A stretch of 64,000 bases of DNA from a virus (lineage: Duplodnaviria > Heunggongvirae > Uroviricota > Caudoviricetes). The position numbers and the translations under genes are program-made. Shown piece after piece: positions 55,117-55,803 of this stretch. The notes under the pieces were generated by a model, which was given only the letters and a program-made list of their open reading frames with translations, was not told where the DNA came from and made no database searches. Location: the IMG/VR virus record IMGVR_UViG_637000107_000010; one strand, 5' to 3'. The first letter of the stretch is position 1. Every line of letters begins with the position of its first letter.

Positions 55117-55233
55117 GGGGATTTATCGATTTCTAATCCCTTGATATGTTAGGTATATAATCCAACACTCATGGTCGCTCTCATAAACATATCCCTTGAG
55201 ACGCAGCAGATTACAACAAATGAAGCCATATAA

Positions 55234-55548
55234 ATGAACAGTAAAGAAAGTTTGCGCAGAAGATTTTTACAACTAATGACAGAAAACGTTAAATCAGAGT
55301 TACTTCTTCTGATGGCAGATAATAACGAAGCAACAAGCAGCATTCTTGCAGACCCTTACGGTAAGATCTCACATAAAACGCTGGATATTATTACCACAAC
55401 ATTAACACCGCTGATGCTTCAACGGCTGAAACATAATATCAACGCATGGGTTAATGAAGAATTAAGTCCTCCCTGCTTATGGGATTCTCGTTACGCATGT
55501 CAGCAAAAAATGCGAATTTTCAACTTACTATCACCAAAGCTCAGGTAG
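55234..55548 (+). CDS. Hypothetical protein (104 aa) on the opposite strand in an AT-rich insert between holin and endolysin
   Basis: ORF in a ~650-bp low-GC segment. Confidence 0.3.
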   Translation: MNSKESLRRRFLQLMTENVKSELLLLMADNNEATSSILADPYGKISHKTLDIITTTLTPLMLQRLKHNINAWVNEELSPPCLWDSRYACQQKMRIFNLLSPKLR

Positions 55549-55803
55549 CCATAAAATCCTGCCCTTCATGGCATACAGGATTTCAATGGAATCACAATGA
55601 CCAACTCTTGCACAGCTGTATCCCTGACTCCCCGACAACTCAGATTTTCAGTATCTGCTGCTATCTAAAGAGAAAGCGCACAAATGCAAGGGTCTTTCAT
55701 CACGTCCTGTTATTGATTGCCTGTGACCTTTTCTTACCTCATGGAACGTTTTTTCAGTTAGAAATATTCATTTTACAACCAGTTCGTATTGTTTATTCAT
55801 CGA

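Follow-up and report, generated by a model that had tools for sequence, protein, structure and literature searches.

A conserved opposite-strand gene and the putative relic of a ydfR-type partner between the holin and endolysin genes of a prophage lysis cassette

What occupies the space between the holin (S) and endolysin (R) genes of this phage 21-type lysis cassette of an E. coli prophage, and is the opposite-strand open reading frame (ORF) found there a gene? The window analyzed here is a stretch of 64,000 nucleotides of Caudoviricetes DNA (IMG/VR record IMGVR_UViG_637000107_000010). Its genes for a P21-type holin, a lysozyme-type endolysin, and an Rz-type spanin all lie on the minus strand and together have the composition of a phage 21-type cassette (Table 1). 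The original prediction held that holin and endolysin genes normally abut in such cassettes, and this agrees with prophage DLP12 of E. coli K-12, where essD (577398-577613) and rrrD (577613-578110) leave the junction empty. It also described an AT-rich insert of ~650 bp at 55150-55800. Such an insert is present, but it is 687 bp long, the proposed left end being ~30 bp short. The GC content of the gap is indeed low, at 0.390 versus 0.543 for the endolysin gene, 0.527 for the holin gene, and 0.504 for the whole window. Two further ORFs in the gap, of 120 aa (55479-55841, plus strand) and 64 aa (55149-55343, minus strand), had no Pfam match and no PGAP annotation, and they were judged spurious, given their overlap with the real gene or with the putative pseudogene relic described below.

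Table 1. Features of the lysis cassette and of the gap between its holin and endolysin genes
Feature	Coordinates	Strand	Basis or remarks
Holin gene, 68 aa	55804..56010	minus	PF04971 "Bacteriophage P21 holin S", E = 5.8e-32; class II, phage 21-type
Endolysin gene, lysozyme-type, 177 aa	54583..55116	minus	PF00959, E = 7.6e-24
Rz-type gene	53780-54304	minus	PF03245
Holin-endolysin gap	55117..55803		687 bp
ORF, 104 codons, intact	55234..55548	plus	ORF list; PHROG 1853
Divergent intergenic region, endolysin start to ORF start	55117..55233		
ydfR (DUF1327)-type stub	55768..55800	minus	tblastn and codons read from the sequence
Putative YdfR-family C-domain relic	55596..55727	minus	blastx

Several details of the cassette itself were recorded. 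The N-terminus of the endolysin, read from the ORF translation as YGLSAAVLALIGAGASAP, is hydrophobic and Ala/Gly-rich. Just 5' of the holin ATG (56011-56019, minus strand), the window reads ATA CAT CAG ATG (IHQ-M), whereas relatives have ATG TAC CAG ATG (MYQ-M); the upstream codon of the dual start is thus ATA here and ATG in the MYQM relatives. Among the fetched loci, the start context was IHQ-M in 42, IHH-M in 3, and MYQ-M in 30. The longer holin form of phage 21 is an antiholin. If the same holds for the longer form here, the IHQ lineage would produce the short holin form only. A strong terminator-like hairpin (11 pairs, 7 of them GC) followed by TTTTTTGTTTT lies ~55 nt 5' of the holin start (56066-56092, minus strand). 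This is the described position of Pas/AgvB-type prophage sRNAs or of tR', and the hairpin matched no Rfam family. The endolysin-Rz spacer is 280 bp long and also contains an annotated 37-aa hypothetical gene. It carries a GC-rich hairpin with a T-run at 54428-54503 on the plus strand (AAAACCCCG...CGGGGTTTTT), which is probably an intrinsic terminator for plus-strand transcription; its resemblance to the Rfam rimP-leader was sub-threshold (24.8 bits, cut-off 47).

The 104-codon ORF belongs to a phage protein family. It matched phrog_1853 (E = 3.5e-47, 161 bits), with residues 1-102 aligned to profile positions 57-158 of 159, and it is already catalogued as the RefSeq hypothetical protein WP_000138558.1 and in PHROG 1853 (function unknown). 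The family is small: 16 relatives were found in a search of 5.8 billion proteins, and a profile search of 1.84 billion cluster representatives gave 20 matches. Full-length members have 104-109 aa and align end to end at 34-78% identity, the most distant one, P0033, being at 21%. Residues E17, K20, P41, G43, W72, E76, Q91, and K92 are invariant in the full-length alignment. Nei-Gojobori dN/dS was 0.14-0.31 in all 10 comparisons of five lineages, values that are pairwise and without tree correction. Judged from these alignments, the opposite-strand ORF to which the original prediction had drawn attention was shown to be a genuine protein gene, with full-length homologues and under purifying selection. 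Searches of the ORF against Pfam, NCBIfam, and PADLOC gave no match, and a literature search by accessions and gene names returned no publication on it.

The setting could invite a simpler view, namely, that the ORF arose by chance in decaying junk DNA and has no function. The ORF lies in a defective, rearranged prophage, a pseudogene probably fills half of the gap, the Shine-Dalgarno sequence is weak, and there is no consensus promoter. Full-length conservation and low dN/dS, membership in PHROG 1853, and a confident fold prediction obtained from six sequences only all argue against this view, which we regard as extremely improbable.

Conservation also bears on where the gene begins. The RefSeq/PGAP call for WP_000138558.1 comprises 90 codons from an internal ATG at 55276. 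We place the start at 55234 because the first 14 residues, which PGAP leaves out, are conserved and form part of helix 1 in the structure model and because distant family members carry a Shine-Dalgarno sequence (GAGGA or AAGGA) 6-9 nt before the same ATG. The window ORF has a weak Shine-Dalgarno-like GAAG at 55222-55225. A TATAAT hexamer without a -35 partner is found at 55156-55161 (plus strand); it is kept in the window and in loci L003, L011, and L012, and L007 has TACAAT. A consensus promoter scan of the gap detected no full sigma-70 site. Conservation is limited to this -10 hexamer and to the closer lineages; it does not extend to the whole family. On the strand of the ORF homologue and ~60-100 nt 5' of it, the more distant lineages L081, L098, L015, and L078 have a conserved CCAGTG-N5-7-CACTGG hairpin followed by a T-run in place of TATAAT, and the upstream control region therefore differs between sub-families. 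At the other end, the ORF stop is not followed by any canonical terminator. On the plus strand from there to the holin gene, a single, weak terminator-like site was detected, and it falls within the holin gene itself (55978-55992).

A five-codon upstream ORF (55220-55237, plus strand; ATG AAG CCA TAT AAA TGA) overlaps the start codon of the 104-codon ORF in an ATGA. The arrangement is kept in L003, L007, L011, and L066, and in L012 the two are fused in frame, giving a 109-aa form. The overlap might couple the two by termination-reinitiation, or it may simply be a by-product of the Shine-Dalgarno-like GAG/GAAG.

The product of the 104-codon ORF has a mass of 12.1 kDa and a pI of 9.3 and lacks a transmembrane segment or hydrophobic span. 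AlphaFold2 modeled it, from six sequences only, as a five-helix bundle (pLDDT 84.7, pTM 0.74), and a comparison of the modeled fold gave no informative match. It is thus predicted to be a small, soluble, all-helical cytoplasmic protein. Across the family, the pI ranges from 4.6 to 9.3, which disfavors a conserved nucleic-acid-binding role. The variable pI and the modeled helical bundle together suggest that the product may act by protein binding.

The gap extends ~255 bp beyond the ORF, and in DNA searches this part matched only within the same arrangement. On the minus strand, an ATG lies 3 nt past the holin stop and opens a stub of 10 codons, MNKQYELVVK, that ends in TGA (ATG AAT AAA CAA TAC GAA CTG GTT GTA AAA TGA). 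By tblastn, the stub matched residues 1-12 of the PhiR12_1 DUF1327 protein at 91.7% identity, and its position is the same as that of ydfR in the K-12 prophage Qin. A second minus-strand segment, with two in-frame stops, matched residues 138-181 of P0135 by blastx with 17/44 identities (E = 3e-4 in a local database of 171 proteins); the aligned sequences are IAADTENLSCRGVRDTAVQE in the window and VAAEIEALACGADRDTAVRE in P0135. This alignment is suggestive of the conserved C-terminal domain of a long YdfR-family protein (PHROG 1085). The same kind of C-domain relic, better preserved, is present in L066, an independent partner-less locus. What is left at 55596-55800 amounts to the first 10-12 codons and a 44-residue, stop-bearing C-domain relic with no open frame; it appears to be a pseudogene relic and not a member gene of the YdfR/DUF1327 family. 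The insert would then originally have been a two-gene unit made up of the ORF and a YdfR-type gene on the lysis strand, which the original prediction had missed.

A known sRNA in the gap was considered as well and rejected. An Rfam 15 scan of 53000-57500 at E <= 1, which included AgvB, AsxR, and STnc100, returned the sub-threshold rimP-leader-like hairpin as its sole match, and none in the gap. Folding of the 258-nt non-coding part gave z-scores of -0.25 (plus strand) and -2.1 (minus strand), which are not compelling. With the ORF conserved and the gap free of Rfam matches, the locus does not conform to an unconserved ORF within a known non-coding element, the outcome that had been named as speaking against the original prediction.

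Distribution of the arrangement was analyzed in complete genomes. Of 5426 complete E. coli genomes, 734 (~13%) contained the sequence of a 721-bp query, and the corresponding genes of phage 86 are annotated as orf5 and orf6; to the original prediction it can thus be added that the arrangement is common and already annotated. Carriers include strains of O157:H7 (EDL933 and others), O145, O111:H8, and O121:H19. In 622 of the records for complete E. coli genomes, identity of the best match reached 99% or more, and these 620-odd near-identical copies are by themselves uninformative on selection. Among 50,697 deposited phage genomes, the ORF was found only in Stx2-converting phage 86 and two Stx2a phages, and GTDB representative genomes, scanned for species distribution, gave no match.

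Context tables for about 95 loci were used to define classes A to F. Class A, the window type, has the order holin, 261 bp, ORF (plus), endolysin and is usually found in a co-linear late region (sialate esterase, S, ORF, R, Rz, PerC-type gene, nu1). Class B has the order holin, long YdfR protein (PHROG 1085), ORF (plus), endolysin, with the two inserted genes convergent and often overlapping, and class C is like class B with a separate DUF1327 gene in addition. Other partner-less lineages (L066 and L072/73) form class D. In class E, the long YdfR gene and the ORF (plus) are followed by a holin of an unrelated family (Pfam holin 3_1 or 2_3), so that the unit is upstream of the holin. Class F comprises the remnants L011-L014, in which the ORF is intact and ~114-425 bp of the endolysin 5' end is left: in L011 the endolysin is truncated, and in L012-L014 ~114 bp of it remains amid non-phage genes. 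The partner-less lineages with an intact ORF number three and are independent. In the E. coli-type loci, the blastn and tblastn context tables showed the endolysin 5' end to be always linked to the ORF, and in every locus examined the ORF was oriented opposite to the lysis genes.

The surroundings of the cassette were also inspected. Upstream of the holin gene (56011-59500), the orientation of the cassette is wrong for its neighborhood, and a plus-strand block faces the holin. On this strand, ~56560-56620 is presumably a lambda-like cos region; a nu1-type terminase gene begins at 56761, is interrupted by ISEc8, and is followed by terL. In EDL933 (L099, 8222-11700), a sialate esterase gene lies on the other side in opposite orientation, and most other S-ORF-R carriers have a normal co-linear late region. 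Downstream of Rz (49163-53325, minus strand) are a DUF1441 small-terminase-like gene, a gpA terminase gene split into two ORFs (51233-52852 and 50728-51288, minus strand), and lambda-type portal fragments (50013-50519 and 49163-49717, minus strand). These minus-strand terminase and portal genes make up a decayed packaging module. Because 50000-53790 is not contiguous with the EDL933-type match, the strain of the window has a different left junction. The window ORF is intact though the cassette is severed from its late region and the terminase and portal genes are broken.

The reading that we favor, with a probability of roughly 70%, is that of a functional accessory (moron) gene next to a decayed ydfR-type gene. 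An accessory insert of two genes would once have occupied the holin/endolysin junction of this phage 21-type cassette, and the 687-bp gap would be its leftover, the ORF being the surviving half and a long YdfR-family gene on the lysis strand the decayed half. As a moron, the ORF would be an independent transcription unit with its own weak, AT-rich promoter active in the lysogen. It would not be read from the Q-dependent late transcript, since that transcript yields only the antisense of the ORF; where the late transcript still exists, it would read through 687 extra bases to the endolysin gene. The product would give the lysogen a benefit unrelated to virion production. Such a benefit would explain why the ORF, which is retained when the partner, the lysis genes, or the whole prophage decay, has outlived the surrounding phage genes. 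That the ORF is expressed in the lysogen and has a lysis-independent benefit is a more tentative proposal, to which we give slightly less than even odds. Against the moron reading stand the lack of a consensus sigma-70 promoter in the gap and of a canonical terminator, together with the placement of the ORF: it occurs exclusively beside lysis genes, or what is left of them, in three holin contexts. The placement could point to a lysis-related role instead of a generic lysogen benefit.

Such a role could be that of a lysis-control module, in which the ORF protein and the long YdfR protein encoded on the late strand tune or safeguard lysis, the window ORF being the surviving half; for example, an antagonist expressed in the lysogen could neutralize a leaky late-gene product. 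Even where identity has dropped to about 35-42%, the two genes remain neighbors that converge on each other, and their 3' ends often overlap; the pair accompanies holins of three kinds (21-type, 3_1, and 2_3). They have diverged broadly in parallel (ORF/partner-C identities of 42/42, 35/37, and 66/56%), and the unit was never found away from lysis genes or their remnants. Each gene also occurs alone, however, the long YdfR gene in Stx2_95 and the ORF in the window type, L066, and L072/73. In one recombinant, the two genes have 47% versus 93% identity, and the ORF survives where the lysis genes are gone. The structure of the long YdfR partner could not be modeled, the AlphaFold2 result (pLDDT 44.6) being unusable. 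Since the neighboring lysis gene varies (an endolysin or a holin of unrelated families), no single lysis-protein partner is obvious. On balance, a lysis-control module is unlikely. It is also quite unlikely that the ORF and the long YdfR gene form a previously unrecognized regulatory pair in lysis cassettes of three unrelated holin classes, with an antagonist made in the lysogen restraining a late lysis-accessory protein or leaky lysis. If such a pair did exist, the orphan ORF, kept in the genomes of hundreds of pathogenic E. coli, would go on shielding its host, for example, when related prophages that superinfect or share the cell deploy their lysis functions.

A toxin-antitoxin or abortive-infection pair of the long YdfR gene and the ORF, with the window retaining an orphan antitoxin-like gene, would share several traits with this locus: a two-gene unit with one small partner, convergent overlapping genes, and a small gene that outlasts the decayed half. 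Yet neither protein has a Pfam toxin or antitoxin domain or a match in PADLOC; PADLOC-DB 2.0 at E <= 1 gave no family for the ORF, the long YdfR protein, or the PHROG 2572 protein discussed below. The putative toxin stands alone in a complete Stx2a phage genome (Stx2_95), and the two genes converge, whereas those of type II systems are transcribed together. An obligate pair or toxin-antitoxin system was rejected because each gene occurs alone, and we consider it highly improbable.

The constant orientation of the ORF raises the further idea that transcription itself is what is functional and that the reading frame is secondary. A promoter directed against the late operon would produce an RNA running antisense across both the YdfR relic and the holin gene, and leaky holin and endolysin expression in the lysogen would be damped by transcriptional interference or antisense pairing. 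This idea fits the opposite orientation at every locus examined, the lack of a terminator on the plus strand from the ORF stop to the holin gene, and the conserved -10 hexamer. The dN/dS values and invariant residues, on the other hand, point to constraint on the protein and not just on the DNA. The class E ORF points away from the holin gene, so no holin antisense is possible there. Moreover, the plus-strand RNA of the 3' region has no special structure (z = -0.25), and the promoter region is shared by only part of the family. A primarily antisense function is thus very unlikely.

For annotation, these results mean that the ORF start is corrected from 55276 to 55234 and that the non-coding half of the gap can be explained as a probable decayed ydfR-type gene. 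The ORF sits inside lysis cassettes of Shiga-toxin-type prophages, including those of O157:H7, O145, O111, and O121 strains. A role in the lysogen would add it to the conserved accessory factors that prophages bring to pathogenic E. coli, and a role in modulating lysis would have a bearing on toxin release. The architecture as such is ordinary, that of a catalogued hypothetical protein, probably of the moron kind.

Comparison with known systems places the window among several solutions at the same junction. In Qin of K-12, ydfR (DUF1327) lies between essQ and rrrQ, at the same S/R junction, and starts a few bases past the holin stop as the stub does. The Qin gene is encoded on the lysis strand and has no relationship to the 104-aa ORF, and no opposite-strand gene is present at the Qin junction. 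Stx2a phage Stx2_95 has a long YdfR gene alone between S and R. In PhiR12 and Stx1a phages, a late-strand DUF1327 gene converges on a small opposite-strand PHROG 2572 gene just upstream of the endolysin gene, the same architecture as in the window family; in PhiR12_1 (L002), the PHROG 2572 gene (1813-2073, plus strand, 86 aa) overlaps the DUF1327 gene (2021-2530, minus strand). Homology between the ORF and the PHROG 2572 gene was considered and rejected (hhalign probability 0.2%), PHROG 2572 being distinct from PHROG 1853, and the "DUF1823" label of the PhiR12_1 gene is sub-threshold (15 bits versus a cut-off of 25). An unrelated small opposite-strand gene in the same geometry suggests that this architecture recurs at the S/R junction. 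The junction is found empty, with ydfR, with a long YdfR gene alone, with DUF1327 plus PHROG 2572, or with a long YdfR gene plus the ORF. These at least five occupancy states make it a recurrent cargo site, and the cargo in the window would be one of these types in half-decayed form.

The EHEC sRNAs AgvB, AsxR, and Pas resemble the insert in that they, too, are accessory elements found close to the holin gene in lambdoid late regions. The EHEC sRNA papers locate them 3' of PR', in the interval from the sialate esterase gene to the holin gene, whereas the insert sits between S and R.

The closest counterpart of the ORF is orf6 (BAF34038.1; 104 aa) of Stx2-converting phage 86 (AB255436), which belongs to the same family with 53% identity over residues 12-100. 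Like the window ORF, it lies between a 21-type holin gene and a gene for a 177-aa lysozyme, in opposite orientation. Phage 86 retains an intact 268-aa YdfR-family orf5 between S and orf6, where the window has the stub and the relic.

The moron concept reportedly goes back to Juhala and colleagues in 2000. As in the lambdoid morons bor and borD (the latter in DLP12), the insert lies at a late-operon junction, deviates in GC content, is opposite to the late transcript, and is kept in cryptic prophages. The reasoning on morons follows PMC4104026. The insert adds 687 bp between two genes that abut in relatives such as DLP12 (essD and rrrD), and its base composition deviates from that of its flanks (GC of 0.39 versus 0.54 and 0.53). 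Against the moron model, a promoter and a terminator were not demonstrable for the window ORF by consensus scans. Bor is a lipoprotein with a role in serum resistance and is encoded after Rz, whereas the ORF encodes a predicted cytoplasmic helical protein and lies inside the cassette, between S and R. The nearest known object to the window ORF is orf6 of phage 86, and the nearest concept is a lambdoid moron such as bor.
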